From the NCBI GenBank assembly GCA_002421665.1, contig DISH01000003.1, positions 103,291-167,290 of the forward strand: DNA of 64,000 nucleotides, written 5' to 3'. Below are positions 5,295-31,135 of this stretch, in pieces. The stretch comes from Candidatus Omnitrophica bacterium UBA6215 (GTDB taxonomy: Bacteria > Omnitrophota > Gorgyraeia > Pluralincolimonadales > Pluralincolimonadaceae). Under the pieces are notes generated by a model that saw nothing but the letters and a program-made list of their open reading frames with translations, was not told the origin of the DNA and did no database searches. The number at the start of each line of letters is the position of its first letter. The stretch's first letter is position 1. Both the position numbers and the translations under genes were made by a program.

Positions 5295-5373
5295 GGGCCC
5301 GTGGTGCAGCCTGGTCTAGCACGTCAGATTGTCGATCTGAAGACCGCGAGTTCAAATCTCGTCGGGCCCGCCA
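5295..5373 (+). tRNA. tRNA-Asp(GTC): tRNA-Asp (anticodon GTC)
   Basis: Acceptor GGGCCCG/CGGGCCC, D-stem GTGC/GCAC, anticodon stem TCAGA/TCTGA with loop TTGTCGA, T-arm GCGAG-TTCAAAT-CTCGT, discriminator G, encoded CCA. Confidence 0.85.
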
Positions 5374-5411
5374 GTAATTTCTCTCTAATTACCAAAAGAG
5401 AGAGGCTTGAA

Positions 5412-5447
5412 GCCTTGATCAGTTAACCTGATCAAGGCTTTTTCTTT
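5412..5447 (+). terminator. Rho-independent terminator after the tRNA operon
   Basis: Perfect hairpin GCCTTGATCAG-TTAAC-CTGATCAAGGC followed by TTTTTCTTT. Confidence 0.75.
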
Positions 5448-5719
5448 GTCTTTATATTTTAAAGACTTAGGGCATCGTTTCCCGACGATGTCGTTAGTTT
5501 TATCCACTTTTCTCTTTTAGCGTTTAAAATCTCCGCAAGTTCGGCCAGCTATTCTCCGAAATAGCGCGATTTATCTCTGATTCGGCTTATTTTTGGGCTC
5601 CTGTAGTAAATGCTATTTTGGCCGTAATCTGGTGTTTTCGATTGAGTAAAATGGCCATTTACTAGGAATTGGCGGATATTCGGATGGATTTATCTCTAGT
5701 AAACGGCCTTAAGGTGGGG

Positions 5720-7314: not shown

Positions 7315-7758
7315 CTATAGGTTAAAGAACAGATACCCGTTCCAATGTGAGCCGGTTATCTTTTTGGCGATAGAGGATAAGGTCTTGTATATTTTCCCGT
7401 CATACTCGAAGCCCTTCTCAAGGACCTTCACCTGGTACTTGGCGTCTTTGTATTCCTTGGTTATTGCGGTTCCGGGGATGGGAAGCCGCTTGTCCTTGGC
7501 AGATATTGGATGGCTTACCGCCGGTTTATCCGGCCTCAGGATTTTATTGTTGATTGGATCATACTCCTCAATAAGCGCCTTTAGTTTATTCCTGACTTTG
7601 GGTGACAAATTGCCGTATTCTTGCTCCTGAAGTTTATAGGCAACCTTGCGCCAGAGGTAGAGCTTATGATTACTTACGGCATCTTCGCCGTAGAGTTCCT
7701 TATAGCGCCCAAGGAGTTCTTCTGCGGATGCGTTTTTAAGAGACATTATTTCGCTCAT
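7315..7758 (-). CDS. DUF2924 family protein (serine-recombinase-associated accessory protein)
   Basis: 147 aa. C-terminal pattern KYQVKVLEKGFEYDGKIYKTLSSIAKKITGSHWNGYLFF. Sits 5 nt upstream of, and co-oriented with, the serine recombinase, which is the usual arrangement for this family. Confidence 0.6.
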   Translation of the reverse strand: MSEIMSLKNASAEELLGRYKELYGEDAVSNHKLYLWRKVAYKLQEQEYGNLSPKVRNKLKALIEEYDPINNKILRPDKPAVSHPISAKDKRLPIPGTAITKEYKDAKYQVKVLEKGFEYDGKIYKTLSSIAKKITGSHWNGYLFFNL

Positions 7759-7893: not shown

Positions 7894-8664
7894 ATGAATA
7901 AATGGATTAAGAAAAGTATAGAAATTGCAAATAGTCCTGGCTACTTAGATAAGCTGGGAAAGATTTATGTTATGAATATGAATCCCGAGCGCCCTCTCGA
8001 TGGCGGTATAGAACGCTCTATTCGCGAAGCCTTCAATAATCACGATACCAAGACGTTAATAAAATTGCTTCTGGAAGCAGAAGTTTTCCCCGTTAAGGAT
8101 TCTTATATAGGATTTATTAGAGCAGATGAAAAGGCAATCGATCAAAATCCCGAGACAGTAGAAAGAATAGGGGATCGTTTGTATGGATTAGGGTTAGAGA
8201 AACTTATTCAAGAAGCGACGCGCCCCAAGGAAACAAACAGGCAATTAGGAAGTTCCTTTCGCAGTTGGCTTCCTTCTTTGGTGTACCCGATACTGGAAGA
8301 GGATGAATTTACTAAAGCTAAAGGCATAGCTTTTTTAGCTGGGAGCGACAAGGCACTTAAAGATTACGCAGTTAAACATCTTGGTTGTAGGCTAACCAAG
8401 GGGATAGATGTTTTATTCAAAAAAGACGATATTTATGTAATTGGCGAAGCGAAATTTTTGACTACGCCTGGAGGCGAACAAGACCGCGGTTTTGACGATG
8501 CATCGAAGTTCATTAAAAGTAGATCTGGTAGGGCAAAGAGGATCGCTTTAATAGACGGTTATATTTGGCTTAAAACAAATAAAGGGCTTCATAGCAAAAT
8601 CGTGAAGAGTAATTTAGATATATTCAGCGCTTTGCTATTAAAAGACTTTATAGAAGTACTTTAG
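7894..8664 (+). CDS. Putative type II restriction endonuclease (PD-(D/E)XK fold)
   Basis: 256 aa. IDVLFKKDDIYVIGEAKF fits a D...(E)xK catalytic core. Convergent with the adjacent DNA methyltransferase and overlaps it by 17 nt. Confidence 0.5.
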   Translation: MNKWIKKSIEIANSPGYLDKLGKIYVMNMNPERPLDGGIERSIREAFNNHDTKTLIKLLLEAEVFPVKDSYIGFIRADEKAIDQNPETVERIGDRLYGLGLEKLIQEATRPKETNRQLGSSFRSWLPSLVYPILEEDEFTKAKGIAFLAGSDKALKDYAVKHLGCRLTKGIDVLFKKDDIYVIGEAKFLTTPGGEQDRGFDDASKFIKSRSGRAKRIALIDGYIWLKTNKGLHSKIVKSNLDIFSALLLKDFIEVL

Positions 8665-10447
8665 CCGTTTTATAAAAAGAAAAAGAAGGGGGGCTTTTAA
8701 ATAAGTCTTGTTTTTGATTTAAGTTGGATAATTTTTCTTCCGCAGTTTTTATTGCAGACTCATTAGAATCAATACCAATCCAACCTCGATTTAATTCTTC
8801 CGCCGCAATGAGAGTAGTGCCAGAACCGCAAAAACAATCTAAGATTAAATCTCCTTCTCTCGAAGAGCACAGGATAATCTGTTTTAACAATTCTTCATTT
8901 TTTTCTGTTGGATAAGTCTCACTAACAAATCCCGGATCTCTGAAATCCCAAATATCTTGAATCTTTTTTCCTTTATTCTCATCAGCATAGATTATTTTTC
9001 TTGGGTTATTAGTTTCTGACCATTCAATTAAACCTAATTTATCTAATCTGGTAAGCTCGGCAGGCGGATAGCGCCAGTGTCTTCCCTTAGGTGGCTTTAA
9101 TTCCTTCCAAGGCTGTCCTGTAGGGCCATTTTTAGTTTCCCCTTTTGCATGCAATGGAGTAGTAGCATAGCGTCTACCTTGCTTATCTATTTTTGGGAAT
9201 TGTTTTTCTATTTCTTCCTCAGAAAGCGTTAATCTATAATCAGACCAATACATAGGATCGTTTCCGTTGGGTTTAGATTTGGAGTAGTAATAAATAACAT
9301 CTTTTATGTTGCCATATGCTTTACGTTCAAAATTCTTAGGATTACATTTTATACGTGTTATGTCATTTCGGAAATTTTCTTCTCCAAACACTTCATCCAT
9401 AATAATTTTTATGTAATGACCTATTTTTTGATCTATATGAAGATATATACTGCCATCTTCGGATAATAATTCGCGGAGAAAAACAAGTCGTTTTCTTAGA
9501 AATTCTAGAAATTCTGTATTAATAAGCTTATCGCTGTAGGATTTTTCTTCTTCGTACCCTACAAATTCCTGTCCAGTGCCGAAGGGCGGATCTATATAAA
9601 TGAGATTAACCTTCCCTTTTATGTCTGGATCATCATAAAAATTTTTTAGTATTCCAAGATTATCACCTAGCATAAGTGCATTTTTTGTTTTAGGATTCGG
9701 ACCATACCTTTTAATAAATTTTAATTCAGCAGATGAAGTTTCAAATAAAATTTGTTCTCTTGTTTGCTTACCGGGATACAAAAGCTCACATCCACCTTTT
9801 GGCCTCTTTTCTTTTGGTATAGTATGATTAACTCGTTCTAGTGTTTCTTCTCGAATTGCAGATTTAATTACATCCGTAACTATTCCCTGAATTATCAATT
9901 CATCTGGTTTAACGAATATCGGCTGTAGCCTAGAATTTGCTGGCTGGAGTCTAATCTTACCTCTTTCCTTATAGAATTGTTTTAACGTTGCCTCTGTGTT
10001 GTTTATGAGAGCGACCACCTTCTGCCCGTTTTCAGCAGTTACCTGTTTTTTGACAAGAATAATATCTCCATCGTTAATATTTTCATCTATCATACTTTTT
10101 CCAACTACTTGTAGAGCGAAATAATTATTACCGGTTTTAATTTTATCCTGAGGAACTGCTATACTTTCTCTATCTTCGATTGCCTCAATTGGAGTACCGG
10201 CTGCTATTCGTCCCAAAAGAGGTATTTGGACTAGCTTCTGTTTCGCAAAGACATCAAGCGCTCGCGGTTGATTTTCTTCCTTTCTTAAATAGCCCATACT
10301 TTGTAAAGCTTGGACGTGATAGTGAGCTGTAGAAACAGAAGAGAGGTGAAGATGTTTTTTGATTTCTTCTAAGGAAGGGGCGAAATCATGTTTATCTATG
10401 TAGGTTCTTATAAAATCTAGTACTTGTTTTTGGCGTTTTGTAAGCAT
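8648..10447 (-). CDS. LexA-like repressor (wHTH + S24 autopeptidase) fused in frame to a beta-class N6A/N4C DNA methyltransferase
   Basis: 599 aa. Residues 1-~225 align with LexA: LTKRQKQVLDFI wHTH, IPLLGRIAAGTPIEA with an Ala-Gly cleavage site, VVGKSM catalytic Ser, TLKQF catalytic Lys. Residues ~230-599 carry methyltransferase motif IV IYIDPPFGTG followed by motif I LDCFCGSGTT (beta-class order). No stop codon lies between the two parts. Confidence 0.75.
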   Translation of the reverse strand: MLTKRQKQVLDFIRTYIDKHDFAPSLEEIKKHLHLSSVSTAHYHVQALQSMGYLRKEENQPRALDVFAKQKLVQIPLLGRIAAGTPIEAIEDRESIAVPQDKIKTGNNYFALQVVGKSMIDENINDGDIILVKKQVTAENGQKVVALINNTEATLKQFYKERGKIRLQPANSRLQPIFVKPDELIIQGIVTDVIKSAIREETLERVNHTIPKEKRPKGGCELLYPGKQTREQILFETSSAELKFIKRYGPNPKTKNALMLGDNLGILKNFYDDPDIKGKVNLIYIDPPFGTGQEFVGYEEEKSYSDKLINTEFLEFLRKRLVFLRELLSEDGSIYLHIDQKIGHYIKIIMDEVFGEENFRNDITRIKCNPKNFERKAYGNIKDVIYYYSKSKPNGNDPMYWSDYRLTLSEEEIEKQFPKIDKQGRRYATTPLHAKGETKNGPTGQPWKELKPPKGRHWRYPPAELTRLDKLGLIEWSETNNPRKIIYADENKGKKIQDIWDFRDPGFVSETYPTEKNEELLKQIILCSSREGDLILDCFCGSGTTLIAAEELNRGWIGIDSNESAIKTAEEKLSNLNQKQDLFKSPPSFSFYKTAKVLL

Positions 10448-10591: not shown

Positions 10592-11641
10592 ATGGATAAT
10601 TCAAGTAACGCTAGAAACGGCATAGGGTTAGCGCTATCAGGGGGTGGTAGCAGAGCTATAGCATTTCATTATGGTGTTCTTGAAGCGCTCCATGATTTTG
10701 AAATAGACAAAAAAATTAAAGTAGTGTCAGCTATCTCTGGAGGGGCCGTCATCGCTGCTTTATGGACTGTCCATTCTGATGATTGGGACTTATTTACAAA
10801 GAATATAGAGTTGGTATTGGACAAGGGGCTCGAAGGAACAATTTTTAAGAAACTAAAGCATCCGCTCGTTCTATTACAGCAGTTATTCCATTTAGGAATA
10901 GACTCTGGCTTACTTGCGGAAGCCTTGGATGAGCTAGTTTTGAATGGTAAAAAACTTAAAGAATTGCCAGAAAATCCAACCCTTATTTTAAACGCTACTG
11001 ATTTACGCACGGGTAGCAACTTTAAGTTTAGCAAATCAGTGTGTGGATCACATAAGGATGGCGGTAGCGACCTCTGTGACATGCGACTAAGCGATGCCGT
11101 AGCCTGTTCAGCCGCTTACCCGCTGTGTTTTAAGGCTAAGAAGATACGAATGGATAACGGTAAAGATGTATTTCTAACAGATGGCGGATCGTACGATTGT
11201 TTAGGGGCTAATGCATTAATGCCCGATAAAGATGAGGGAATATCAATATTGATCCAAAACTGTGAGACTATTATTACAAGCGATGCCTCGGCTCCATTTT
11301 TAGAAGACAGGAAATATTTAGGAAGGTCTATAGGTGATGCACTGTACTCGTCTTATTTAACCTGCGCTAAGAGGACACGCTCTTTGATATATAACAAAAT
11401 GTATCACCTTAAAGAAATCGGAGAGATACCCTATTTAGGTACAATCAAAATGGACAGCAAACACCCAGACGTAACCGCTAGTTGGAGTAAAGCAGATTTA
11501 GAGTTTGTAAATGGTTATAAGACTAATTTCAAGCCAGTTACTGGAAAGGCTGCCACCTATCTCAAGAAGCGCGGTAAAGAATCGGCAGAAATAATAGTAA
11601 AAAAATATTTACCACACTTAGTTACAAATAAACAGCTATAA
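10592..11641 (+). CDS. Patatin-like phospholipase
   Basis: 349 aa. Oxyanion motif LSGGGSRAIA, GxSxG nucleophile AISGGAV, catalytic Asp in LTDGGSYD. Confidence 0.85.
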   Translation: MDNSSNARNGIGLALSGGGSRAIAFHYGVLEALHDFEIDKKIKVVSAISGGAVIAALWTVHSDDWDLFTKNIELVLDKGLEGTIFKKLKHPLVLLQQLFHLGIDSGLLAEALDELVLNGKKLKELPENPTLILNATDLRTGSNFKFSKSVCGSHKDGGSDLCDMRLSDAVACSAAYPLCFKAKKIRMDNGKDVFLTDGGSYDCLGANALMPDKDEGISILIQNCETIITSDASAPFLEDRKYLGRSIGDALYSSYLTCAKRTRSLIYNKMYHLKEIGEIPYLGTIKMDSKHPDVTASWSKADLEFVNGYKTNFKPVTGKAATYLKKRGKESAEIIVKKYLPHLVTNKQL

Positions 11642-11654
11642 GGAGGAAAATAAA

Positions 11655-12737
11655 ATGGCTAACAAGGCGCAGGAGATTCTAATACCTGGTGAGGGTGTAT
11701 TTCGTACAGTATTTCTTAATGTCGGCCAAGGCGATTCTACTCTTTTAATCATTCCTGATGGAACAGGACATAAATACGTATTAACTGATTCCCATCAGGA
11801 TGATAAAAAGGGAAGCATTGATATAATTAAATTACTAGAAGATCTTCTTGAGGGACAGAAGAGAAAGCTAGATATCTACATCAATACTCATCCCCACAAA
11901 GATCATCTTGGAAAAGTCAAAGAAATGTATGAAAATAAAAAAATTGGCATAAAACAAGTTTGGCATTCCGGGCATAAACCTGGCGGTGATCACAAGGATG
12001 CATATAAAGACCTAGAATACGTTATGGAAAAGGTTGGAAAAGAAAATGTTTTTCAACTTAAAGGTAGCCGTGAAGATAACAAGTTAGATGATAAAGAAGT
12101 TAAGCTGGGAGATATAAGCTTTAATATTTTAGCACCCGCCGATTATGTTACCGATGAAATTGAAGATGAAAAACCTGAAGATAGATACCATAGGATTCAT
12201 GAGCAATGCGGAGTGATTCGATTTAAGTATGGCAAAAAAGAAAAGCAAATATTATTAACCGGCGATGCAGATTACGATGCCTGGACAAAGCATATCACCG
12301 ATTATCATAAAGACAGGCTTCCTGCACACGTCTTGAGCGCGGTTCATCATGGTTCAAATACTTTTTTTTGGAAAGGCGATCCGAAAGACGAAGATCCATA
12401 TACTGAACATTTAGATAAAATTGATCCTAAGCTTATAGTTGTTAGTGCTCCAGCGCGAAAAGATAGCCCACACGGCCATCCCGATAAGGAAGCGATGGGT
12501 CTGTATGAGGACAAGGTCGGTAAAGATAACCTCAAGCATCTAGGGGACAAGCCAAAATGCATAATAGTTGATATAGATAGTGAAGGAAATATTGATATCC
12601 AAGAAGATTATGAGCTAATTAAAGAATACCCCTCAGGGGACGACAATAAAGATGAAGATAAAGAAAATGGTGGGCAAAGTGCATCTGTGATATATAGCTC
12701 AAAGAAACAACCTTCTAAACCGTGGCTTAACGGTTAA
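11655..12737 (+). CDS. Metallo-beta-lactamase fold hydrolase, ComEC-C-terminal-like
   Basis: 360 aa. VGQGDSTLLI ... INTHPHKDHLG (HxHxDH) ... LLTGDAD motifs. Strong AAGGAGGA RBS. Starts 13 nt after the patatin stop. Confidence 0.75.
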   Translation: MANKAQEILIPGEGVFRTVFLNVGQGDSTLLIIPDGTGHKYVLTDSHQDDKKGSIDIIKLLEDLLEGQKRKLDIYINTHPHKDHLGKVKEMYENKKIGIKQVWHSGHKPGGDHKDAYKDLEYVMEKVGKENVFQLKGSREDNKLDDKEVKLGDISFNILAPADYVTDEIEDEKPEDRYHRIHEQCGVIRFKYGKKEKQILLTGDADYDAWTKHITDYHKDRLPAHVLSAVHHGSNTFFWKGDPKDEDPYTEHLDKIDPKLIVVSAPARKDSPHGHPDKEAMGLYEDKVGKDNLKHLGDKPKCIIVDIDSEGNIDIQEDYELIKEYPSGDDNKDEDKENGGQSASVIYSSKKQPSKPWLNG

Positions 12738-12738
12738 A

Positions 12739-13518
12739 ATGTGGCTGTCAGAAAATGATAAAAAATGGATAGAAACCAATTATCCAAATCTTCAAATCGT
12801 AGAAAAACAAGGGACACAAGAAGTAAGAGGACCTCTTAGTTTTTGTATGAGTTACGATAAGCATGATCAGAGTCGTGTTATCTTAACGAATAAAAATTAT
12901 AAAAGGGGTATTGTAATATGCGATAAATATGATATCGAAATTGTTTTCACAAGGGCGATTTATCTGCCAATGGTGCGTGAGACGGGGGGCCGGTTTGAAG
13001 AAATAAGACAGCAAAAGAAAATATCAGATATTCGAGATTTGCATATCTGTAAAAGTAAATGGGATGGTAAAGATGGGTGGGCATGCATGTGCTCAAGACT
13101 TGAAGAGCAAATTAGACTACCACCCGGAAGCTCGATAGATATTTTCTTTTATGAATTATTAATCCCATTTTTTTATGCACAAAGTTATTTTTCGGACTAT
13201 GGTAAATATCCGTGGGGCACCTATAGCCATGGAGCATTTGGAATAATTGAGAGCTACATGCAATTAAGGGGAGGCAAAGGAAAAGAATTTGCTAAGGCTT
13301 GTGTAACTGAACTTATGAAAGAAAAAAAGGGTAAAGGGGGCGAAGAAGCTAAAAAATGTATAGAGTTATTAAAAAGAAAGAAAATAAGAAGACACTGGCC
13401 TTGTATATGTGATAATCCAACCGAAAGATTTTATATATGTCATCCCAAAATATTTGCGGGATTGAGGAGTTTGAAAAAAGACATTAGAAAATATAATATG
13501 AAAAAATATTTGATTTAA
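12739..13518 (+). CDS. Hypothetical Cys-rich protein, third gene of the patatin/MBL cassette
   Basis: 259 aa. Starts 1 nt after the MBL stop. Cys motifs WACMCSRL, HWPCICDNP, YICHP. No confident family assignment. Confidence 0.6.
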   Translation: MWLSENDKKWIETNYPNLQIVEKQGTQEVRGPLSFCMSYDKHDQSRVILTNKNYKRGIVICDKYDIEIVFTRAIYLPMVRETGGRFEEIRQQKKISDIRDLHICKSKWDGKDGWACMCSRLEEQIRLPPGSSIDIFFYELLIPFFYAQSYFSDYGKYPWGTYSHGAFGIIESYMQLRGGKGKEFAKACVTELMKEKKGKGGEEAKKCIELLKRKKIRRHWPCICDNPTERFYICHPKIFAGLRSLKKDIRKYNMKKYLI

Positions 13519-13657
13519 TTCGAGTTAATAGATAATCAAAGAAAGATAACAATGTCAAAGATTATCGACCCCAACAAGATTAGAGTAGGCGATGTCATCC
13601 TTGTGGCCAGTGGTACAAGAGTTACCATCAACATTAAACAAAAACTCGGATAATAAA

Positions 13658-14878
13658 ATGGCAGACAATAACAAAGTTTATTCCCAGTCACGGTTAGGCT
13701 CATTTGACGATTGCAGGTTAAAATATAAGTATCATTATATCGACCATATCGAATCAGACATCAAAACCATCGAAGCCTTTCGCGGAAGCATGGTTCACAA
13801 GGTTCTCGAGGAGCTGTATAAACTCGTGAAGGCCGGTACAGTCAAGCCTCTTGAGTGGGCGGTTGGACTATATGACGATACTTGGAAGAAGAATTATCAT
13901 ACAGGAATAAAGATCGTTAAGAAAGGGGTTACCTTAGATGGTTATTATCAAAAGGGCAAAGAGGCCGTTATCAACTACTACGAGTGCTATAGCCCTTTTG
14001 ACCAGGCCAAAGTAGTCGATACCGAACGCAAGATCAGATTTACATTACGAAACGGCACGGAAGAATATGCTTTTTTAGGGATACTCGATAGGCTTGACTG
14101 GAATGATAAGGCCCAGATATTTGAAATTCACGATTACAAAACCACGTCTTCCCTCATGACCCAACAAGAGGCGGATACGGATTGGCAGCTTGGCCTCTAT
14201 CATATAGCTCTCAAGGAAAAATGGCCTGATATTAAGGATGTCAAACTCATATGGCATTCACTCCTATTTAATAAAGAGGTTATTTCATCAAGGACAGAGG
14301 TTCAGCTTGATTTGCTTCAGAAGGAAGTTATCGATGAAATAAAGAAGGTCGAAGAATGTACGGAATTTCCTCCAAAGAAAAGTGCTCTTTGCGATTGGTG
14401 CGAATATCAAGCGATGTGTCCCGCTTGGAAACATCCTAAGGCCATGGAAGAGCTCTCAGTTAACGAATACAAGAAAGACCCGGGCGTAATGCTGGTTTCA
14501 AAGTATGCAGATTTCGAAAATAAGAAAAAAGAGTTTAAAGAAAAAGTCGTTGAAATAGAACTTGAACAGAGTAAGCTTGAAGAAGCTGCGATAGAGTTTG
14601 CCGAGAAGAATAAAATCGCAATAATAGACGGCCCTGAAAATCAGCTTAAGGTCGATATAAAAGAAGAGCTAAGGGCCCCTACCAAAACAGAAGACGCGCA
14701 GTCATGGCAAGGCCTTAGAGATGCCCTTATAAAGGAAGGCAAATATAACGAAGTATCTACCGTCAATAACAACATGCTCAACTACCGCATACGCATATGG
14801 CCCAAGGAGTTTTTGAAAAAGATAGAAGCATTCCTTAAAAGACAGATAACAAAGTCAGTCAAGCTGATTAAAAAATAA
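13658..14878 (+). CDS. PD-(D/E)XK nuclease, Cas4/AddB-like with C-terminal 4-Cys cluster
   Basis: ORF 13592..14878, with the ATG at 13658 (MADNNKVYSQSRLGSF) preferred. Core motifs LDRLDW...EIHDYKTT (D..E.K) and C-terminal CDWCEYQAMCP plus an upstream Cys, a RecB/Cas4-like Fe-S arrangement. Confidence 0.65.
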   Translation: MADNNKVYSQSRLGSFDDCRLKYKYHYIDHIESDIKTIEAFRGSMVHKVLEELYKLVKAGTVKPLEWAVGLYDDTWKKNYHTGIKIVKKGVTLDGYYQKGKEAVINYYECYSPFDQAKVVDTERKIRFTLRNGTEEYAFLGILDRLDWNDKAQIFEIHDYKTTSSLMTQQEADTDWQLGLYHIALKEKWPDIKDVKLIWHSLLFNKEVISSRTEVQLDLLQKEVIDEIKKVEECTEFPPKKSALCDWCEYQAMCPAWKHPKAMEELSVNEYKKDPGVMLVSKYADFENKKKEFKEKVVEIELEQSKLEEAAIEFAEKNKIAIIDGPENQLKVDIKEELRAPTKTEDAQSWQGLRDALIKEGKYNEVSTVNNNMLNYRIRIWPKEFLKKIEAFLKRQITKSVKLIKK

Positions 14879-23953: not shown

Positions 23954-24814
23954 ATGGATAAAAAGAAAGATATCCCTTACGAAAAAGTCATAAAAGACTT
24001 AACTAGCATAACCGATAAATTTAAAGAAGTTAGTTGTTTTAAGAAAAAAGAGATAGAAGATATCGAACAGACGCGCAGACAACTAGATATTGTAAAGGAT
24101 TACTGGAAGGCAAATCCAAATCCACCTTCATCGTTAGCATATGCCACGCTTACCTCGGCGGCAAGCTATATTCATGAATTCAAAAGCTATGTCAACCACA
24201 TTGGTCCTTCAGAATTTACGGGTTCGCTTTTGGGAACCGCAATTAGTTCCGGCGATTCGATAGTGGCAACTGGCATGACCCTTTCGTATATCGCTCCAAC
24301 TAATGATGAGGCCGTTAAAAAAAAGTTAGAAGTTAAATTTGTTGAAATAAAAGAAGCTCCCAGAAGAAAAAACCGCAGAAAGGAAATCAAAAGATATCTT
24401 AAAAAATTATCCCCTCATTTGGCTTCTGCCTATGAAGGAGCATGGGAAAATCTCGAAACAAATTTTAGCGATTCGGAAAGAGGGGCTGCTTTTCTTATGA
24501 GAGAAGTGGTGTCGCAAGTTTTAGATATTTTAGCTCCAAAAGAGGCAATTAAAACATCAGATTTTATTCCTGACCCAACAGCAAAAGACGGTGTTACTCG
24601 AAAACATAGGTTAGAATACATAGCAACCCATAAGGCAAAAGGCAGTTTTAGCAAGGAATTATTAGATAGAAGTATTCAGGGTTTCTTGGATACTTACGAA
24701 GGTTTAAACGATGCCCATAAGAGAACTTTTCTTGATAAATCAAAAATAGAAAGTTTTTTATTTCAAGCCGATGATTTATTGCATACGCTTTTTAATTCGG
24801 TAATAATCGATTAA
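23954..24814 (+). CDS. Hypothetical protein
   Basis: 286-aa ORF with RBS-like AGAGG upstream. No recognisable family. Sits immediately upstream of the HNH gene. Confidence 0.5.
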   Translation: MDKKKDIPYEKVIKDLTSITDKFKEVSCFKKKEIEDIEQTRRQLDIVKDYWKANPNPPSSLAYATLTSAASYIHEFKSYVNHIGPSEFTGSLLGTAISSGDSIVATGMTLSYIAPTNDEAVKKKLEVKFVEIKEAPRRKNRRKEIKRYLKKLSPHLASAYEGAWENLETNFSDSERGAAFLMREVVSQVLDILAPKEAIKTSDFIPDPTAKDGVTRKHRLEYIATHKAKGSFSKELLDRSIQGFLDTYEGLNDAHKRTFLDKSKIESFLFQADDLLHTLFNSVIID

Positions 24815-24830
24815 ATTAGAGAGACAATTA

Positions 24831-25295
24831 ATGCCAGAATACACATCATCATATGCAAAAAATATAATAAAACGATCTCTACGAGAAATTATCGACCCTG
24901 GTCCTAGTAAGAAAGAAAAGCAAACAATCTGGGATTATTTTGGTTCGGAATGTGCTTATTGTGGTAAGAGACTACATAAAGGGCGTAGAGAAGGGCATAT
25001 TGATCATTTAGTTCCTAATGGTGCTAACCAGCTTTATAATCGGGTACTATCTTGCAAGGAATGCAACGGAGATGAGAAACGCGATAAATCCTGGAAGAGG
25101 TTTCTGGCGCAAAAGCGCTCGAATGTAAAGATCAAAGCCAAAAGAAAAGCGAAAATATTGCAGTGGCAAAAAAGGCATAAAAAGCCTATTTTTAGAAAAG
25201 GCGTTCTATCTAAAGTAGAATCTCTCCAGGATAATGTAATATCGTATTATGAGAGAAATGTAGAGAAGGCGAGAAGACTGCGAAACAAAAGGTAA
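24831..25295 (+). CDS. HNH endonuclease
   Basis: 154 aa. CAYCG ... HIDHLVP ... CKECN HNH/zinc-finger motif. Confidence 0.75.
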   Translation: MPEYTSSYAKNIIKRSLREIIDPGPSKKEKQTIWDYFGSECAYCGKRLHKGRREGHIDHLVPNGANQLYNRVLSCKECNGDEKRDKSWKRFLAQKRSNVKIKAKRKAKILQWQKRHKKPIFRKGVLSKVESLQDNVISYYERNVEKARRLRNKR

Positions 25296-25313
25296 TCTCG
25301 ATAGGTCAAAAGT

Positions 25314-26048
25314 ATGATTTCTGTAAATAGTGATGGTAAATTATGTGTCGGATGGGTTCAAAATGGCATAAACCATAAAAGATATTTTCGCTCTGAAAAG
25401 GAATCCGAACGTTTTCAGGAGATGGTAGTCGACATTCAGAATTGCATGAAGCTTTCTGAAGAGATGGAACGCTTTGCCAGGAATTTTAATTATGATCCAA
25501 AACTCGTTGAGCTAAAATTTGCACAACTTGGCAAAGAAATAGAAGAACTTAAAGAACGAATAAGAATCAAAGAATTGCTCCAAAAGAAACTCGGTATAGC
25601 GGCTCAAAGATTAGCCGACCAGCCAAGAAACGTAATCGACAAGGACGCCTTCTTTAAAGAAATAAAGCAGCTCAAGGTTGAAATTAATAGGCTGGATAGA
25701 TTCTTTAGGGAGCACGCCATCCTTTCTTTGCACAAATCTCTTCAAGAGACTCTTTCTGAAATGAAAGAGTATTTTATGTACCAAAAGGCGACCATTAAAA
25801 ACGTAGAAGAGATGTTTAAGCAGCTAAGAAAAGAGGTCGTTCAGAAATTTTCTAGCATAACGACTAAGGATAAAGTTTTGACTATAAAGGAGACCGCAGA
25901 ATATCTTGGCATAAGCTATTCGACTGTTCAGTCCATGATGTTCATGCAAGGGCTTCCCTATACAAGAGTAGGCAATAGGTATAGGATAAAAGAAAACGAT
26001 CTACAATCCTGGCTGGAAAAACGTAAGCAAAAAACGACAAGAACATAA
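25314..26048 (+). CDS. Excisionase/MerR-like HTH DNA-binding protein with central coiled coil
   Basis: 244 aa. C-terminal LTIKETAEYLGISYSTVQSM...GLPYTRVGNRYRI is an HTH_17/excisionase-type motif. Confidence 0.5.
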   Translation: MISVNSDGKLCVGWVQNGINHKRYFRSEKESERFQEMVVDIQNCMKLSEEMERFARNFNYDPKLVELKFAQLGKEIEELKERIRIKELLQKKLGIAAQRLADQPRNVIDKDAFFKEIKQLKVEINRLDRFFREHAILSLHKSLQETLSEMKEYFMYQKATIKNVEEMFKQLRKEVVQKFSSITTKDKVLTIKETAEYLGISYSTVQSMMFMQGLPYTRVGNRYRIKENDLQSWLEKRKQKTTRT

Positions 26049-26060
26049 TAAAAGGGGCGA

Positions 26061-26750
26061 ATGAAACTCTACAAATTTAGGCCACTTGAAGGCACTGAAC
26101 GTGACATAGATGGTAGTAACGACAGCAACTTTAAGCGCGCTAAAACAATTTTGGAAAATGGTGAGTTCTGGTGCTCTAAATTTTCAGAGCTCAACGATCC
26201 GATGGAAGGCGTATTCTATGGTTCAGCGGATTTAATCGATGCCATATATACAAAGAAGCTCCAGTATAAAATATGTTCTTTTTCAGCTAAAAGAGCCTTT
26301 GAAAAGCCCTACATGTGGGGATATTATGCGAATGGTTTTAAGGGCATGGCAATCGAGATTGAGGTAGACACCGGAGATGTAAAAGAAATATGTTATAGCA
26401 ATAAAATACCAAGCGTGGAATATTTAACAGCTTCTTGCAGAATGTATGGTGATGAAGTGATTTTAAAGATTCTCACGACTAAATCAAGTCCTTGGAAGCG
26501 CGAAGCAGAGTATAGGTTCTTGATAAAAGATGAAAAGAAATACCACAAAATAGGAGAAATCACTAAAGTATATTTTGGAAATCCTTATGGAGGGGTAGGG
26601 AATAAGAAACCCATTTATGAAAATAACCAAAACCTGCTAAACTATGACAAATTAAAAAAATATCTAATAAAGTTCGCAAATGAACGTAATATATGTTGTT
26701 ACTCTATTAAAATCAAAGATGGTAAAGTGCTACCCGATGAGAAATTGTGA
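26061..26750 (+). CDS. DUF2971 family protein
   Basis: 229 aa. N-terminal LYKFR...FWCSKFSELNDPMEG matches the DUF2971 signature. Confidence 0.55.
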   Translation: MKLYKFRPLEGTERDIDGSNDSNFKRAKTILENGEFWCSKFSELNDPMEGVFYGSADLIDAIYTKKLQYKICSFSAKRAFEKPYMWGYYANGFKGMAIEIEVDTGDVKEICYSNKIPSVEYLTASCRMYGDEVILKILTTKSSPWKREAEYRFLIKDEKKYHKIGEITKVYFGNPYGGVGNKKPIYENNQNLLNYDKLKKYLIKFANERNICCYSIKIKDGKVLPDEKL

Positions 26751-26798
26751 GCGAATTATGGCATAGATTTTCCCTAAAGCAAATCTTAGGAGATCGGC

Positions 26799-27437
26799 AT
26801 GAAAATAGTTTGCACCCGCTGCAGAACAGTTATGGGCGAACAAAAGCCATATAAAGACCCCTCCGAAATCAAAGCTACCTGCACTGCCTGTATCGAAAAA
26901 GCAAAAGAGGAAGCCGCACGATTTGTGCCCGAGCCTGAACCTAGTGATGGGCAAGAGATAATGCTGGAAAATGGCCTTAAGGGCACGCTCTGGGTCGCAA
27001 AAGACAAAAAGGGGAAGCTTTCCTTTGGGGAGCTGGTCGTTAGTGGTAGAAAGTTCTATTGTTTAAGTAATGGACGAGATAAATTTCAGGAGTATCTTGG
27101 CAGTTTAAAAGACGAAGAGGCCGATGTTTCATTTCTCCATTCCATGACGTGTAAAATAGACTCTCTTCCCAGAGGTCAGAGAAAAAAGCAAGATCCCCCT
27201 AAGGCAGAAGAATCAAAAAAGGACGAAAGCATTTATTATAACTGTACGGTGAGGGTACCTAAGCATTGTGTTCAGCCAATGTTTGATGATATGGCCGAAC
27301 GGATGGATAAGGTCGCTAAAATACTCGCAGAAGCAGCGCTTAACTTATATAAGAAAGAGCGTCAAAAGGCTGCCCAAGATGGCGGCCTAGCGCCGATGTC
27401 CACCTTTAAAGGGGCGGACATCCATAACTCCAGATAG
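26799..27437 (+). CDS. Hypothetical protein (N-terminal CxxC...CxxC)
   Basis: 212 aa. CTRCRT...CTAC Cys pairs. GC content is higher than the neighbouring island genes. Confidence 0.5.
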   Translation: MKIVCTRCRTVMGEQKPYKDPSEIKATCTACIEKAKEEAARFVPEPEPSDGQEIMLENGLKGTLWVAKDKKGKLSFGELVVSGRKFYCLSNGRDKFQEYLGSLKDEEADVSFLHSMTCKIDSLPRGQRKKQDPPKAEESKKDESIYYNCTVRVPKHCVQPMFDDMAERMDKVAKILAEAALNLYKKERQKAAQDGGLAPMSTFKGADIHNSR

Positions 27438-27598
27438 CTTAAAAAGTTGCGCAGTTTTGAGCCAAAATTGACCGGACAAAACGGACAAATTCTAGACTAT
27501 TTTGTCCGCTTAAATGACTGTTTCCCGGTCCGGTAGGCAGCGAGGAATAGTATCTCGGAGCTGGAATATTGCTTGATACGATAGGGTAGTACGGCTAT

Positions 27599-27840
27599 AA
27601 TACCCCTGTATAAAAGAGAGATACTTTATCGTAGTGAGACGGCCAACGGCCGCCATTACTTCCCCTATATAGGCGTAACGAAGTATGCCGAGTTCAGCCG
27701 TGGAGGATTCTGTAAGAATCCGACCGGCGTTTTGAACGAGGAATAAGGTGTATAGGCAAGCAGCAGGAGCGGTTAAGATGGGTAATTTACATTTATTATA
27801 GTAATCATAGGGCGTTAGGAAACTAACGCCCTTTTTATTT
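27599..27840 (+). ncRNA. Candidate small non-coding RNA (promoter-to-terminator unit, no plausible ORF)
   Basis: Sigma70-like promoter: TTGATA (27564-27569), 17 nt, TATAAT (27587-27592). A strong terminator lies at 27809-27840. The internal stem-loops include GGATTCT-GTA-AGAATCC nested in GTTCAGCCG...CGGCGTTTTGAAC. Only 7- and 16-codon ORFs are present. Confidence 0.4.
27809..27840 (+). terminator. Rho-independent terminator
   Basis: AGGGCGTTAG-GAAA-CTAACGCCCT followed by TTTTTATTT. Confidence 0.75.
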
Positions 27841-28015
27841 CGCTATGCTATAAAAAGCGAAGTTCGTCTATTAAGCTAATACCGGCAAACTACGAAGTTT
27901 TTTCTCAAAATCCGTGTTTGCTGCAAGTTATTAAGATGTTATAATTTAGTATGGTTTCAAGTCAATAGCACAAAAAACGACACTCGTCTATTAAATGTTA
28001 GAATAATGATAAATA

Positions 28016-28696
28016 ATGATAAACATAGAAAATAAAGCAATGATGAAACAGGTAATAATATCGGTCAGTATTTGTGCATGCTGTTTTATGCTATTCGGCT
28101 GCGTTTCTCTATCAACAAATAAAACACAAGTCATAAATTTACCTTATGATATATCTATGTCTGATACTATTAGAAAACTTGGAGAACCATTAGAGCAAAA
28201 GAAAATATCTTCTGATATTACTCGACTCGCTTACAAAAATTCAATGTGGTCATCATTTGAACAATATTGGCTGTATTTTCGTAATGATAAATTGATAAAA
28301 AAATCCTATAGAGAAAATATCTATAAAGATATCCAAGATTATTACGAATTAGGCTTAATATCAAAAGATGAAATGGAGCGTCAATGCAGTATAAGACAAG
28401 CCAATGCAATGCAGATACTTCAGGCGTATAGTGAAATAAAAACTATGGAGTACGAACGCGAATCTCTCGATAACCAAAAACAAATTATATCCAATCAGAA
28501 AAAAATATTGAAACAGCAAACGGGTACCACATTTACCCCTGGCCAGAATCTTTATGACCAATATGGCAACTCCCTTGGTCGTATTGATAGCAACGGGCAT
28601 GTGTACGACCAGTATGGAAACCCGCAAGGTAGTATAGATAGCAGTGGGAACATCTATGACCAGTACGGCAACTCTCTTGGTCGTATAGGCCGTTAA
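28016..28696 (+). CDS. Lipoprotein with C-terminal tandem 17-aa repeats
   Basis: 226 aa. Signal peptide plus lipobox MLFGC. C-terminal repeats YDQYGNSLGRIDSNGHV / YDQYGNPQGSIDSSGNI / YDQYGNSLGRIGR. Confidence 0.65.
   Translation: MINIENKAMMKQVIISVSICACCFMLFGCVSLSTNKTQVINLPYDISMSDTIRKLGEPLEQKKISSDITRLAYKNSMWSSFEQYWLYFRNDKLIKKSYRENIYKDIQDYYELGLISKDEMERQCSIRQANAMQILQAYSEIKTMEYERESLDNQKQIISNQKKILKQQTGTTFTPGQNLYDQYGNSLGRIDSNGHVYDQYGNPQGSIDSSGNIYDQYGNSLGRIGR
28553..28696 (+). repeat. Tandem repeat, about 2.8 copies of a 51-bp unit inside the lipoprotein gene
   Basis: Units at 28553-28603, 28604-28654 and 28655-28696 (TATGACCA(A/G)TA(T/C)GG(C/A)AAC...). Confidence 0.8.
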
Positions 28697-28722
28697 CTTG
28701 TCTAATACGATGCTAAGCTCCA

Positions 28723-29412
28723 ATGGTTGAAACTAAAATGAAAAGAATGAAATTAACCCTTCAACAAGAATTCAGTAAGGAAGAATATGAAGTTCTTAGA
28801 ATTATGCGCCAAGTATTGCTTGATACCAGCGATGGTTCTATTTATTCTTGGGCAAAAACGACTAAATCAAAAGAATTGGCCGTAATCCTTCACCATTTGT
28901 TATTTTCCTGCAGAGATTCCTTAGGTAGCATTTTCACCTTAATGCATGATTACGGATATTTTTCTATATATATAATAGGCGCTACACTAGTTGAATATTT
29001 TATAGATTTCTCCTTTATTCTAAAAATCAAAGAGCTTGCCGGCTCAAGAGCCAAAGAATACTTCAATGCTTTAAAGGATAATAGAAAGCCCTTTTTAAGA
29101 AATAAAAAGTATCATTGTTTAGAACAACGCGCAAAAGAAGCCGGATTAACCAGTTTGTACAACAAAACGTATAGGTCCCTATGTTCCTTTAAGCATGTAA
29201 ATTTAAAAGGGCATTTGACAACTCGTCGAGACGATAAATTGAAAAAAGACAGGAAAATATTTATGCTGCAAATGACAAATCTATATTTAGAAATGTGGCA
29301 AACACTTAATGATTATTTGAATAACCGCAATCTTAACGTAAAGATACGAGGCTTGCTTAATAAAGAATTCGTTGAAATAGAAGGATTAATAAAGAAAGAT
29401 TTAATTTTCTAA
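28723..29412 (+). CDS. Hypothetical protein
   Basis: 229-aa AT-rich ORF with no recognisable family. Last island-type gene before the boundary repeats. Confidence 0.5.
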   Translation: MVETKMKRMKLTLQQEFSKEEYEVLRIMRQVLLDTSDGSIYSWAKTTKSKELAVILHHLLFSCRDSLGSIFTLMHDYGYFSIYIIGATLVEYFIDFSFILKIKELAGSRAKEYFNALKDNRKPFLRNKKYHCLEQRAKEAGLTSLYNKTYRSLCSFKHVNLKGHLTTRRDDKLKKDRKIFMLQMTNLYLEMWQTLNDYLNNRNLNVKIRGLLNKEFVEIEGLIKKDLIF

Positions 29413-29487
29413 CAATTCACTCCAGCGGACAGCGCCAGCGTGTTTATGAGGGTCGCCGCCGCTGAGTTCAAATGTTAAAGGAATAAC

Positions 29488-29715
29488 ATGGAAAATAATA
29501 AAAAAGAGATCAGATTGATTTTAATACTGCAGATAGCAACAGCATGCTTTATGGCAATCGTTACCGTGACAGAGATAAACAAATTAAATGCTTATAATAG
29601 TATAGTAAAGGAATATAAAGAGGAAATGGTTAAATATAAGCAAAGAAACGCTCAATATGATGAGGAGATGAGAAAGTACAAGGAACGCGTTAACCGGCAA
29701 AACAAAGACTTCTAA
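29488..29715 (+). CDS. Small membrane protein (1 TM + coiled-coil tail)
   Basis: 75 aa. Hydrophobic LILILQIATACFMAIVTVT followed by a charged KEYKEEMVKYKQRNAQYDEEMRKYKER tail. Flanked by 12-bp direct repeats. Confidence 0.5.
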   Translation: MENNKKEIRLILILQIATACFMAIVTVTEINKLNAYNSIVKEYKEEMVKYKQRNAQYDEEMRKYKERVNRQNKDF

Positions 29716-29739
29716 CAATTCGCTTCAACGGATTAACAA

Positions 29740-29994
29740 ATGGATTATATGAACTTTCTCGGCTTCGCTGCTGCCACATGCACCACCATAGCCCTGTTCC
29801 CGCAGATCTATAAGATCCACCGGACCAAACACGCCCGCGACCTGTCATTCCCGATGTATATTATATTCTCCACGGGCATCCTCCTCTGGCTCATATACGG
29901 CATTGTGATCGGCAACCTTCCCATAATCTGCGCAAATTCCATAACCCTCTTGTCCTGCGCCTACATCCTGGTAATGATGGTAAGGTATAAATAA
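29740..29994 (+). CDS. SemiSWEET / PQ-loop family sugar transporter
   Basis: 84 aa, 3 TM, with PQ motif ALFPQIYKI. GC-rich again, marking the return to core composition. Confidence 0.7.
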   Translation: MDYMNFLGFAAATCTTIALFPQIYKIHRTKHARDLSFPMYIIFSTGILLWLIYGIVIGNLPIICANSITLLSCAYILVMMVRYK

Positions 29995-30074
29995 AGGTCA
30001 TTCCTTGACCGTACCTTTCGATAGTGGTAAACTGGACAAAATAACCGGTAAGTGACACAAGAAGGGAGGAAGCC

Positions 30075-30797
30075 ATGAAACGCTTCGCCGCAACGATCAT
30101 CTTCCTTTACGGCGCCATCCTGGTGGTCCTTACTCAACCGGTCCTGCTTACGTGCTTTACGTCGATGTTCGAGGCTCAGAATTGGATGGAAACCGTCAAG
30201 GTTTTCAACAGCCTCAGGTATTGGGTACTGTTCGCGATAATGCTCCTTTGCCAGGCGGCATTGCTCGGCATCCCGGTCAGGATGAATAGCGCAAGGCCCG
30301 TTACGCAGCGGCCCGTGGTCTTCCTGGCGTTGGCTTCGAGCCTTTTGGCTGCGATACTCGTCTGGGGGATAGTCGCCGCGCTATACGAATATACAGGCCG
30401 CAAGCTCGATATGTTCGTGGGGACGTTCTTCCTGATGGACCTTGACGAAATGAAGAATGTTTTTTCGCAGGAGCGGGCAATATGGCTTTGGATGGCCGGC
30501 TTTGCAGCCATATGGACGTTTTGGGGCATAGTATTTTACAGGCAGGGCAGGAAACTCGAGCCGAAGACTTTTGTGGAACGCCAGTGCAAGTTCCTTCTTG
30601 CGGGCAGCGCGCTCGAGCTGTTGGTAGCCGTGCCCACGCACATTATCGCCAGGGGCAGGGATTACTGCTGCGCCGGGTTTTCGACATTCGTGGGGATAGC
30701 GGCGGGGATCTCGATAATGCTCATCTCGTTCGGGCCGGGAGTATTCTTCCTTTACGCCGACAGGTGGAAGAAACTTCGCCCCGGGCGCGGTAAATAA
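30075..30797 (+). CDS. Integral membrane protein, unknown function
   Basis: 240 aa with about 6 hydrophobic helices. RBS GGGAGGAAG precedes the ATG. Confidence 0.6.
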   Translation: MKRFAATIIFLYGAILVVLTQPVLLTCFTSMFEAQNWMETVKVFNSLRYWVLFAIMLLCQAALLGIPVRMNSARPVTQRPVVFLALASSLLAAILVWGIVAALYEYTGRKLDMFVGTFFLMDLDEMKNVFSQERAIWLWMAGFAAIWTFWGIVFYRQGRKLEPKTFVERQCKFLLAGSALELLVAVPTHIIARGRDYCCAGFSTFVGIAAGISIMLISFGPGVFFLYADRWKKLRPGRGK

Positions 30798-31135
30798 TGG
30801 ATGATAAGTCCTTCGAAGAGCTCGTCATTTCGGCCGTAGAAAGCCTGCCGGAAGAGTTCAGGAAAAAGCTCGAGAACATAGATATAGTCATCGAAGAGGC
30901 AAAAGAGGGTAAAGACGGCCTGCTTGGGATTTACCAGGGCGTGCCCCTTTCCCGCAGGACGCATTATTACGGCAATGTCCTGCCGGACAAGATAACGATA
31001 TTCAAGAACAACATTGAGCGCATGTGCCGGACCGAAGAAGAGATAAAGGAGACGGTCAGGAGAACGGTCATACACGAAATAGCGCATTATTTCGGATTGT
31101 CCGACGAGCACATGAAACGATCCGGGACATACTGA
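30797..31135 (+). CDS. Zincin-like metallopeptidase (DUF1025 family)
   Basis: 112 aa. FEELV...LPEEF N-terminus and TVIHEIAHYFGLSDEHM (HExxH). Confidence 0.65.
   Translation: MDDKSFEELVISAVESLPEEFRKKLENIDIVIEEAKEGKDGLLGIYQGVPLSRRTHYYGNVLPDKITIFKNNIERMCRTEEEIKETVRRTVIHEIAHYFGLSDEHMKRSGTY

Follow-up and report, generated by a model that had tools for sequence, protein, structure and literature searches.

An outward-facing promoter at the edge of an Omnitrophota defence island probably marks the right attachment site of a tRNA-inserted element

We analysed a window of 64,000 nucleotides from Candidatus Omnitrophica bacterium UBA6215, in which the interval 27564-27840 had been read, from its letters, as a candidate gene for one structured non-coding RNA. 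We favour a different reading, to which we give a probability of roughly 0.6: the interval is attR, the right end of a 22.3-kb element inserted at a tRNA gene, and the ~232-nt RNA predicted from it is a junction transcript rather than a conserved structured RNA. A single structured RNA gene fits poorly with the comparison to related loci. Only the first ~48 nt of the RNA are conserved, and the interval has neither an Rfam match nor a consensus fold. Sequence comparison demonstrates a boundary, a conservation pattern on its two sides, two att copies and, elsewhere, a joined (attP-form) unit.

The interval contains four features:

27573-27601, plus strand: outward-facing promoter TTGATA-N17-TATAAT, kept in related loci
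27608-27655, plus strand: conserved leader, from the inferred transcription start to the element boundary, with a hairpin and the att core inside
27656-27808, plus strand: non-conserved flank outside the element (GC 0.30-0.43), holding the nested stems at 27692-27737
27809-27840, plus strand only (the minus strand lacks a T-run): intrinsic terminator, predicted to end the junction transcript

The promoter hexamers and their spacing are as the sequence-only reading gave them, but they had been placed at 27564-27592 and lie 9 nt further right. The promoter is the top sigma-70-like match in 24000-31000 (11/12). Promoter-like sites are frequent in that region (24 found versus 16.4 expected), so the match on its own proves little. 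What makes the promoter credible is its retention: TTGAnn-N16/17-TATAAT, spacer included, is kept in 14 related loci, and one further locus (L155) adds TTGTTT-N17-TATAAT. Conservation in about 15 loci supports selection on the promoter, and we infer that it fires. The terminator is exactly as described, a 10-bp GC-rich hairpin with a T-tract. Its stem (27809-27818 / 27823-27832) has six G-C pairs and a GAAA loop, is followed by TTTTTATTT reaching 27840, begins 207 nt past the -10 hexamer and forms the strongest terminator-like site of 24-31 kb.

The 16-codon (27685-27735) and 7-codon (from 27779) ATG ORFs reported for the interval are indeed present on the plus strand, but they are not the only ones. 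GTG ORFs of 12 and 17 codons lie between promoter and terminator on the same strand, and the minus strand has ORFs of 48 aa (27510-27656) and 21 aa. We considered the 48-aa frame, which runs across the leader, as a conserved gene and rejected it, since a stop codon closes the frame in locus L141. There is thus no credible predicted ORF between promoter and terminator. The stems named earlier can all be located: GGCC-AAC-GGCC at 27641-27651, and GGATTCT-GTA-AGAATCC at 27705-27721 nested in 27692-27737. A further stem, AAGCAGCAGGAG, lies at 27758-27769. The nested stems have no counterpart in the fetched loci, in IMG/VR or in the phage and plasmid collections. Their flank, 27656-27808, would be either the displaced original trailer of the tRNA or older island debris.

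To find relatives of the locus, we used the gene upstream of the promoter as a marker:

26799-27437, plus strand: gene for a 212-aa protein with an N-terminal Cys4 zinc ribbon

Seventy loci were fetched from genome and metagenome collections through an alignment of homologues of this protein, and more were added by exact-protein look-ups. An nhmmer search with 27438-28015 matched about a dozen loci, only over the first ~220 nt (E 1e-12 to 1e-24), and a profile built from these matches enlarged the locus set. Comparisons drew on about 15 related Omnitrophota loci of metagenomic origin. For the 212-aa protein, 55 homologues are on record; where a source is named, it is nearly always called Candidatus Omnitrophota. 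Its gene is usually the last or near-last one ahead of the conserved block described below. The protein has no sequence match in Pfam, PHROG, NCBIfam, PADLOC or PDB; its AlphaFold model (pLDDT 81) matched no PDB fold (best Foldseek E 0.6), and IMG/VR holds no relative. A BLAST search of 27440-27860 against phage and plasmid collections returned only a 28-nt chance match. All 60 IMG/VR matches to ACCGGACAAAACGGACA were bare 17-mers, and the 32-nt hairpin was absent from IMG/VR.

Comparison of the window with seven full-length relatives revealed a conserved block that ends abruptly. Column identity is 0.55-0.86 over 27388-27657 and falls to background (0.10-0.35) from 27658, which sets the conservation boundary at 27657/27658. 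Four parts make up the block: the inverted repeat ATGTCCG...CGGACAT, additional copies of CGGACA(A/T), the promoter together with its spacer, and the first ~50 transcribed nucleotides. Its repeats are:

27395-27422, no strand: inverted repeat GATGTCCACC / GGCGGACATC (relatives: ATGTCCG...CGGACAT), first of the elements of the block
27468-27513, no strand: CGGACAAA twice in direct orientation (27473 and 27482) and once inverted (27501-27508), identity 0.79-0.86
27549-27625, no strand: perfect 8-nt inverted repeat AGTATCTC (27549-27556) / GAGATACT (27618-27625)

The first repeat overlaps the 3' end of the 212-aa gene; additional copies of the ATGTCCG...CGGACAT type occur at cargo-gene ends in two loci (L012 and L010). 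The stretch 27468-27513 is the best-conserved part of the block, and its repeats look like protein-binding repeats. The arms of the third repeat bracket the promoter symmetrically, each 16 nt outside the nearer hexamer (-35 or -10), and they covary between loci (AATCTC/GAGATT in L010, CCTCTC/GAGAGG in L045). The upstream arm precedes the start site, so the arms are more naturally read as half-sites for a protein than as the strands of an RNA helix. We also considered, and rejected, an invertible promoter switch: the arms are 7-8 nt long and only 61 nt apart, which to our knowledge is closer than known invertases allow.

The conserved leader follows. With the transcription start taken as 7 nt past the -10, the distance from start to core end is 47-49 nt in all 15 loci. 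The leader of the window carries the GGCC-AAC-GGCC hairpin and, overlapping it, a displaced copy of a tRNA end, CGGCCGCCA (27647-27655), which is the attR core. Twelve of the 15 loci have a hairpin that stops 2-8 nt short of the core end and whose sequence is specific to the lineage. This hairpin may be a feature of the RNA or a palindrome to which the recombinase binds; it may also be a relic or mimic of a tRNA T-arm and acceptor strand.

Where does the tRNA-end copy come from? The chromosome in the window has ~53% GC, and a tract of ~38% GC extends from just past tRNA-Val and tRNA-Asp (5177-5373) to ~29.7 kb. The second of these tRNA genes would be the integration target:

5295-5373, plus strand: tRNA-Asp(GTC), found by ARAGORN and Rfam

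Its last bases, GGGCCCGCCA (5364-5373), represent attL, the att core copy on the left. The two copies, CGGCCGCCA at 27647-27655 and GGGCCCGCCA at 5364-5373, match imperfectly, and the core repeat of the window is short: CCGCCA is identical and one base is missing. We placed the element at 5374-27655 because CGGCCGCCA stands at the aligned leader position and corresponds to the GGGCCCGCCA of tRNA-Asp. In five relatives (L024, L012, L027, L007 and L008), GC climbs at the promoter and host-type genes follow (Rex, PEP mutase, CpaB/secretin), which places the end of a low-GC element at the block.

A second complete element, spread over L154 and L010 on one contig, has the gene order of the window, with tRNA-Glu where the window has tRNA-Asp. 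It runs from tRNA-Glu through the trailer, recombinase, DUF2924, LexA and methylases to ParB-methylase, TerS and TerL, and then to the 212-aa gene and the block. Its tRNA-Glu ends in GGTTGGGGCTACCA and its leader in CTAAGGGCTACCA (shared ends ...GGGGCTACCA for the tRNA and ...AAGGGCTACCA for the leader), so that the 9-nt direct repeat GGGCTACCA, the tRNA 3' end, stands at both ends. Such a repeat is a signature of tRNA-targeting islands (PMC4383910). Islands of this class restore the tRNA gene that they split, and a displaced fragment marks the far end (Islander, PMC4383910). The same arrangement is seen here, where one end has an intact tRNA and the opposite end a displaced duplicate of the tRNA 3' end, clearly in L010/L154 and imperfectly in the window, and composition and conservation both shift at the boundary. 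Of the host itself, the collections yielded only near-identical strains.

Two other placements of the ends were rejected. A crossover at GGCC-AA-GG would put attL at 5705-5722, beside the recombinase stop codon, but no copy of the block is found there: nhmmer detected none in 5300-5900, Smith-Waterman alignment of that region with the block gave only the 12-mer TTTATCTCTGAT, and L155 indicates that 5374-5719 is internal to the element. The ends of Logan contigs (27992/28001, with a restart at 29447) were likewise discarded as island boundaries, as neither repeats nor conservation support them.

The left end of the element provides the counterpart of the block:

5374-5489, plus strand: trailer (P' arm), identified by homology as the 3' half of a split promoter-to-terminator unit
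5490-5719, plus strand: rest of the left arm, from the trailer to the recombinase stop codon, matched to L155 by eye and unscored

The trailer contains a CUCUCU/AGAGAG hairpin, TTCTCTCT / AGAGAGAGG (5379-5405), and a terminator, AAGCCTTGATCAG-TTAAC-CTGATCAAGGCTT with a T-run (5410-5447), followed by the conserved CAAAGACTTAGGG. Homologues stand after tRNA-Asp in the window, after tRNA-Glu in L154, and right behind the leader and core in L045, L028, L053 and L155. The similarity is strong (nhmmer E 1e-23 to 1e-32 across related loci; a Smith-Waterman score of 53, where shuffles reach at most 27), and 11 of the 28 predicted trailer pairs have changed in a compensatory manner, chiefly within the stem of the terminator. 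We asked whether the trailer could be native host DNA and rejected this, since the same trailer lies behind both tRNA-Asp and tRNA-Glu whereas the flanks past the core in L010, L008 and L012 are unrelated; the trailer is therefore most simply element-borne. The rest of the left arm has two TTTATCTCT(G/A) motifs, at 5570 and 5689, and shares a borderline 12-mer with the upstream block arm in L007 and L141.

In four loci, the two halves are found joined in the attP form: L155, which includes the recombinase, and L045, L028 and L053. The joined unit is ~115 nt long and consists of promoter, leader, tRNA-like core, CUCUCU/AGAGAG hairpin and terminator. L155 reads TerL, a block-like arm with TTGTTT-N17-TATAAT, core, trailer, a region resembling the left arm (by eye) and a recombinase 82% identical to that of the window. 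In L045, a host-type nhaA-I riboswitch lies ~150 nt past the trailer, so some loci of attP form may be attR beside the trailer of an older element, the result of serial or tandem insertions. The block of L141 points, in antisense, into a recombinase gene whose product shares just 26% identity with that of the window, and no trailer separates the two.

The element carries its own candidate integrase:

5720-7309, minus strand: 529-aa large serine recombinase (Pfam Resolvase, Recombinase and Zn_ribbon_recom), its 3' end toward the tRNA
7315-7758, minus strand: DUF2924 protein (Pfam), a constant neighbour of the recombinase

The large serine recombinase is most likely the integrase. Homologues at 58-86% identity are common in Omnitrophota; the gene likewise lies next to a tRNA in L154 and probably in L013, and its pair with DUF2924 recurs in the L154, L155 and P0058 contigs. 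Islands that target tRNA genes normally carry tyrosine integrases (PMC4383910); the sole recombinase found in the element of the window is, contrary to this, a serine recombinase. Beyond these two genes, the island codes for a Tsp45I-type restriction enzyme, a fusion of LexA with a methylase, a patatin, a metallo-beta-lactamase, an E2-like protein and a PD-(D/E)XK nuclease. To the right of these lie a ParB-methylase, the small and large terminases, a lipase, an EEP nuclease and a nuclease of the pPIWI-associated type; an HNH protein, an excisionase-like HTH_17 protein, a PDC-S31-like protein and the 212-aa zinc-ribbon protein complete the list. Judged by its predicted genes, 5374-27655 is an integrative, phage-like defence island. 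The setting among defence-like genes is thus as it had been described, but the feature does not lie inside the island: it sits exactly at its edge.

Taken together, these results suggest the following model. The 22.3-kb element (5374-27655) would have entered the chromosome at the 3' end of tRNA-Asp, and the enzyme responsible would most likely be the large serine recombinase encoded near the left end of the element. Its last ~260 bp would form a control block made of the CGGACA repeats, the bracketed promoter and a transcribed stretch of 47-49 nt. Before insertion, this block would be joined directly to the CUCUCU/AGAGAG hairpin and strong terminator, making a self-contained unit of ~115 nt. 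Insertion would cut the unit at the core. The 3' half (5374-5447) would from then on supply the host tRNA with its trailer and terminator, and the 5' half would be left at attR pointing outward, transcribing the flank up to the next terminator at 27809-27840. The ~232-nt RNA would then be a chimera of 48 nt from the element and 185 nt of unrelated flank, and the empty target site would read as the tRNA-Asp 3' end followed by TTACTTCCCCTATATAGG (27656 onward). The promoter may serve to transcribe across the att site, or it may restore transcription into DNA that lies beyond the tRNA. In our committed reading, selection would act on the promoter block as part of the element end. We infer that the RNA of the integrated state is a by-product of the junction, functionless beyond whatever its first 48 nt carry. 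The elaborate repeats that flank the promoter suggest regulation, for a purpose that the junction model does not name.

A more elaborate version, which we regard as distinctly improbable, would make the unit a small RNA gene that spans the attachment site. In the free form of the element, this gene would yield a ~115-nt precursor, from which trimming of the tRNA kind would leave a ~48-nt hairpin-NCCA "acceptor mimic". Insertion would split the gene so that the 3' context of the RNA reports integration. Recombination, expression of the recombinase or host tRNA-directed processes would then receive feedback from the mimic or from transcription across the site.

We then weighed the interval as a genuine structured or trans-acting regulatory RNA of ~232 nt. 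A promoter and a terminator with no credible ORF between them invite this reading, and many sRNAs with a 5' seed likewise combine a conserved 5' end and a variable body. The whole interval (27599-27840) also folds better than shuffled sequences, with a z-score of -3.7. However, the z-score is just -2.0 when the terminator is excluded (27608-27805), and 9 of 200 shuffles fold equally well. The Rfam scan that had been proposed as a check gave zero matches at gathering score across the feature; at that score, the whole window yields five tRNAs only, and a permissive search of 27400-28050 gave best E-values of 2.9-10, all driven by the terminator. Rfam and ARAGORN also left the promoter-to-terminator unit of the attP-form loci unmatched, with nothing tRNA-like. 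Covariation, the other comparative check, pointed the same way: RNAalifold yielded no fold supported by covariation, with 0 pairs for 14 aligned leaders and only the 4-bp GGCC hairpin, itself without covariation, for the 8 closest leaders. Compensatory changes were confined to the promoter-bracketing repeat and the P'-arm terminator at 5410-5440.

The specific RNA classes that had been proposed found no partner either. A type III antitoxin would consist of a tandem array of ~30-40 nt units; Tandem Repeats Finder reported a single 10-nt x2.2 repeat at 28002-28023, which argues against this class, and the downstream gene is lipoprotein-like rather than an endoribonuclease toxin. A retron-like RNA is disfavoured by the absence of both a nearby reverse transcriptase and a1/a2 repeats. 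Pfam, run on the large ORFs of 5720-29412 other than three between 16306 and 20584, found no reverse transcriptase; PHROGs and NCBIfam found none in those three, and none is listed for L001 in its precomputed Pfam tables. The two ends of 27608-27808 are not connected by any inverted repeat; the repeats detected are local hairpins or bracket the promoter. The weak resemblance to SRP RNA dissolved, as Rfam gives no SRP match. We also tried and rejected a trans target in the island: the search for complementarity found one low-complexity 10-mer, fewer than shuffled leaders yield, and no target of at least 11 nt. Tandem repeats, reverse transcriptase and toxin partner are all missing. Because the body is conserved in no locus, the 3' 185 nt are largely refuted as part of such an RNA, and we hold this reading to be scarcely credible.

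Other explanations take the conserved 5' part more seriously. The functional product could be a short RNA resembling a tRNA acceptor, the first 47-49 nt being released by the tRNA 3'-end trimming of the host and the rest discarded. It could comprise a single-stranded AGAGAUA stretch, the hairpin and an NCCA-like tail, and could act as a mimic, a decoy or a partner of the recombinase. The constant length of 47-49 nt speaks for it, as do the 12 of 15 hairpins that end 2-8 nt before the core while differing in sequence between lineages, the tail that is a real tRNA 3' end in L010/L154, and the sequence downstream in the attP form, which is the trailer found behind real tRNAs. Yet RNAalifold finds no consensus structure, ARAGORN and Rfam detect nothing tRNA-like, and the hairpin z-scores are modest and even positive (+0.45 to +0.81) in the window, L029 and L054. 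Moreover, the hairpin is equally expected if the attP arm holds a decayed copy of a tRNA T-arm and acceptor strand, and it could also be a palindrome bound by the recombinase; we consider such an RNA unlikely. A comparably small chance goes to the view that there is no meaningful RNA at all and that the block is kept as a DNA att arm, with sites for the recombinase, a directionality factor or a repressor, the hexamers being silent or part of the protein-binding architecture. This would account for the five CGGACA(T/A) copies in direct and inverted orientation, for the conserved spacer, for the lack of a conserved RNA fold, and for the symmetric inverted repeat, whose arms change together as a dimeric DNA-binding protein would impose and whose upstream arm lies outside any RNA begun at the 27573-27601 promoter. 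Without transcription, however, it is hard to explain why in 14-15 loci the two hexamers have kept a consensus or near-consensus sequence and a 16-17-nt spacing even as neighbouring bases drift, or why most loci have a terminator on the same strand within 60-225 nt.

The last alternative borrows from phage lambda, where Q acts by antitermination at PR', a promoter with a short "6S" leader transcript that ends at the terminator tR'. The locus could similarly hold a late-gene promoter with a terminated leader, the 212-aa protein being an antiterminator or activator for the packaging genes in the circle. The likeness is real in several respects: a constitutive-looking promoter, a short terminated non-coding transcript, a small regulatory-looking gene upstream and, in some relatives, packaging genes downstream. 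Thus L031 and L038 run from the 212-aa gene through a promoter-like site, ~130 nt, a strong terminator and a small ORF to ParB-methylase, TerS and TerL. A -10-like TATAAA also lies in the early transcribed region (27609-27614), and the conserved spacer could serve as a binding site. However, the leaders of L031 and L038 are not homologous to the block. The 212-aa protein did not qualify as a Q-family antiterminator and resembles no solved structure in sequence or fold, Q proteins included; unlike the lambda arrangement, the unit here spans an attachment site and the downstream gene appears to have its own promoter. In the circle formed from the window, transcription would meet the P'-arm terminator and then the antisense recombinase and DUF2924 genes, ~10 kb ahead of the terminase genes. 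We judge this reading very unlikely.

The junction model has relatives among known systems in which integration splits a unit. In lambda sib retroregulation, the split unit is the 3' region of the int mRNA, and in the integration-dependent immunity of mycobacteriophages it is the repressor gene. As in these cases, the unit here would straddle attP, and insertion would separate its parts and alter expression; the difference is that it is small and non-coding and that an effect on the recombinase is only putative. The closest parallels are islands and prophages at tRNA genes (Islander, PMC4383910). Like them, the element lies directly behind the tRNA, brings its own copy of the tRNA 3' end with a trailer so that the gene stays intact, leaves a displaced fragment of the tRNA end at the far boundary, and has its recombinase gene at the tRNA-proximal end. 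It differs from them (PMC4383910) in its large serine recombinase in place of a tyrosine integrase, in a repeat of only 6-9 nt at the extreme 3' end, and in a strong outward promoter 47-49 nt from the core at the far end. An outward promoter is known from ICEclc of Pseudomonas knackmussii B13, where Pcirc becomes fused upstream of the integrase gene after excision and boosts integrase expression (PMC5812530). The two share an outward promoter at the end of an element located at a tRNA 3' end, which crosses the joined ends after excision (PMC5812530), and in silico an outward-facing promoter does stand at the end of the present element. Neither L155 nor the reconstructed circle of the window places the promoter in a co-oriented fusion with the integrase; such a fusion is impossible here because the hairpin and terminator lie right behind the core and the recombinase gene is convergent.

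For the question of a non-coding RNA, the outcome is deflating: the eye-catching stems belong to a locus-specific flank, and most of the "gene" would be an accident of insertion. What deserves to be kept is the anatomy of a widespread, undescribed family of mobile elements in Omnitrophota that combine a large serine recombinase with DUF2924 and appear to target the extreme 3' end of tRNAs. The family would bring its own tRNA trailer and terminator and carries a tightly conserved outward promoter 47-49 nt from the crossover. This anatomy offers exact boundaries for defence islands of an uncultured phylum, candidate attP/attB pairs for a new group of serine integrases, and a system in which the assembly or splitting of a transcription unit by site-specific recombination could be put to the test.

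Beyond the element, the sequence past the core differs from locus to locus. At least seven loci have a terminator 60-150 nt past the core, with perfect stems in six and an imperfect one in L008. Their sequences differ, as expected if the terminators derive from the flank or the P' arm. In the window, one more signal follows the terminator:

27937-27945, plus strand: extended -10 (TGTTATAAT) of the next gene, 28016-28696, by sequence

This gene encodes a lipoprotein-like repeat protein and, given the extended -10, seems to own its promoter. In L024, a host gene begins ~72 nt past the -10 hexamer with no terminator between them. The downstream genes are co-oriented with the outward promoter in all seven integrated loci.

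Within the 22.3-kb element, one ORF joins a LexA DNA-binding domain and an S24 peptidase to an N6/N4 DNA methylase. In L154, one end of a related element inserted at tRNA-Glu, LexA and methylases are encoded by separate genes, whereas they are fused in the window. The fusion of a methylase with a self-cleaving repressor is unusual. Four further consecutive genes may constitute a defence operon that includes a ubiquitin-conjugation-type component; the E2-like protein gave a PADLOC E2 match of 1e-28.

Window 8648-10447, minus strand: LexA-methylase fusion gene, one 599-aa ORF
Window 10592-14878: consecutive genes for a patatin phospholipase, an LmuA/PDC-M48-like metallo-beta-lactamase, an E2-like protein and a Cas4-like PD-(D/E)XK nuclease

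The interval between the gene for the 212-aa zinc-ribbon protein and the promoter block, the conserved right end of the element, looks like a cargo hotspot. Related loci carry variable cargo there: DUF3800, Fic, a Panacea-type antitoxin and a PDC-S31-like gene. Additional copies of the ATGTCCG...CGGACAT hairpin, or of the first half of the promoter block, are found at cassette ends. The interior of this block is also the point at which many assemblies break.

L012 7522-7565 and 9603-9884: cargo or extra repeat copies
L010 7319-7601 and 8846-8995: the same; also in L136 and L140

The Cys4 zinc ribbon, which occupies the N-terminal ~35 residues of the 212-aa protein, also opens otherwise unrelated ORFs at 43-50% identity (L020-L023 and L056-L075, from MAGs of Planctomycetia and others). 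Such an ORF lies directly after ParB-methylase, TerS and TerL in L056 at least.

GGCCCCATCGTCTAGCCTG, the first 19 nt of tRNA-Glu, is present twice in L154. The copies are ~100 nt apart, and the upstream one is followed by a hairpin region rich in GC. The duplicated start could represent a 5' piece that was displaced, or else a pseudo-tRNA.

L154 about 12095-12113 and 11995-12013, minus strand: two copies of the first 19 nt of tRNA-Glu

In L007 (4298-4365), the leader's GGGCTATTAAAA is followed by a 40-nt hairpin region and then by CCGGTTGGGGCTATTAAAAAA, a second copy of the tRNA-Glu 3' end that is longer and lacks an encoded CCA. This second copy suggests two insertions in succession at the same tRNA.

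In L045, a match to the nhaA-I RNA, a candidate Na+ riboswitch, sits ~150 nt past the trailer, the element-borne hairpin and terminator stretch.

L045 1132-1178, plus strand: nhaA-I RNA, 47.8 bits versus a gathering score of 37

To the right of the element, Logan contigs assembled independently from the same organism stop at window 27992/28001 and resume at 29447. The 1.45 kb in between, where the lipoprotein-like gene and the DUF5677 gene lie, may vary or may have poor coverage. Window 28002-28023 holds a 10-nt tandem repeat, AATAATGATA (x2.2). Each copy of a longer direct repeat follows a stop codon, at two small neighbouring genes. The 226-aa lipoprotein-like gene contains in-frame repeats that encode YDQYGN(S/P)xGRI units, with a weak match to the 5-fold beta-flower family.

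Window 29409-29436 and 29713-29738: direct repeat TTCTAACAATTC(A/G)CT(C/T)CA(G/A)CGGA
Window 28546-28686: three 51-nt in-frame repeats
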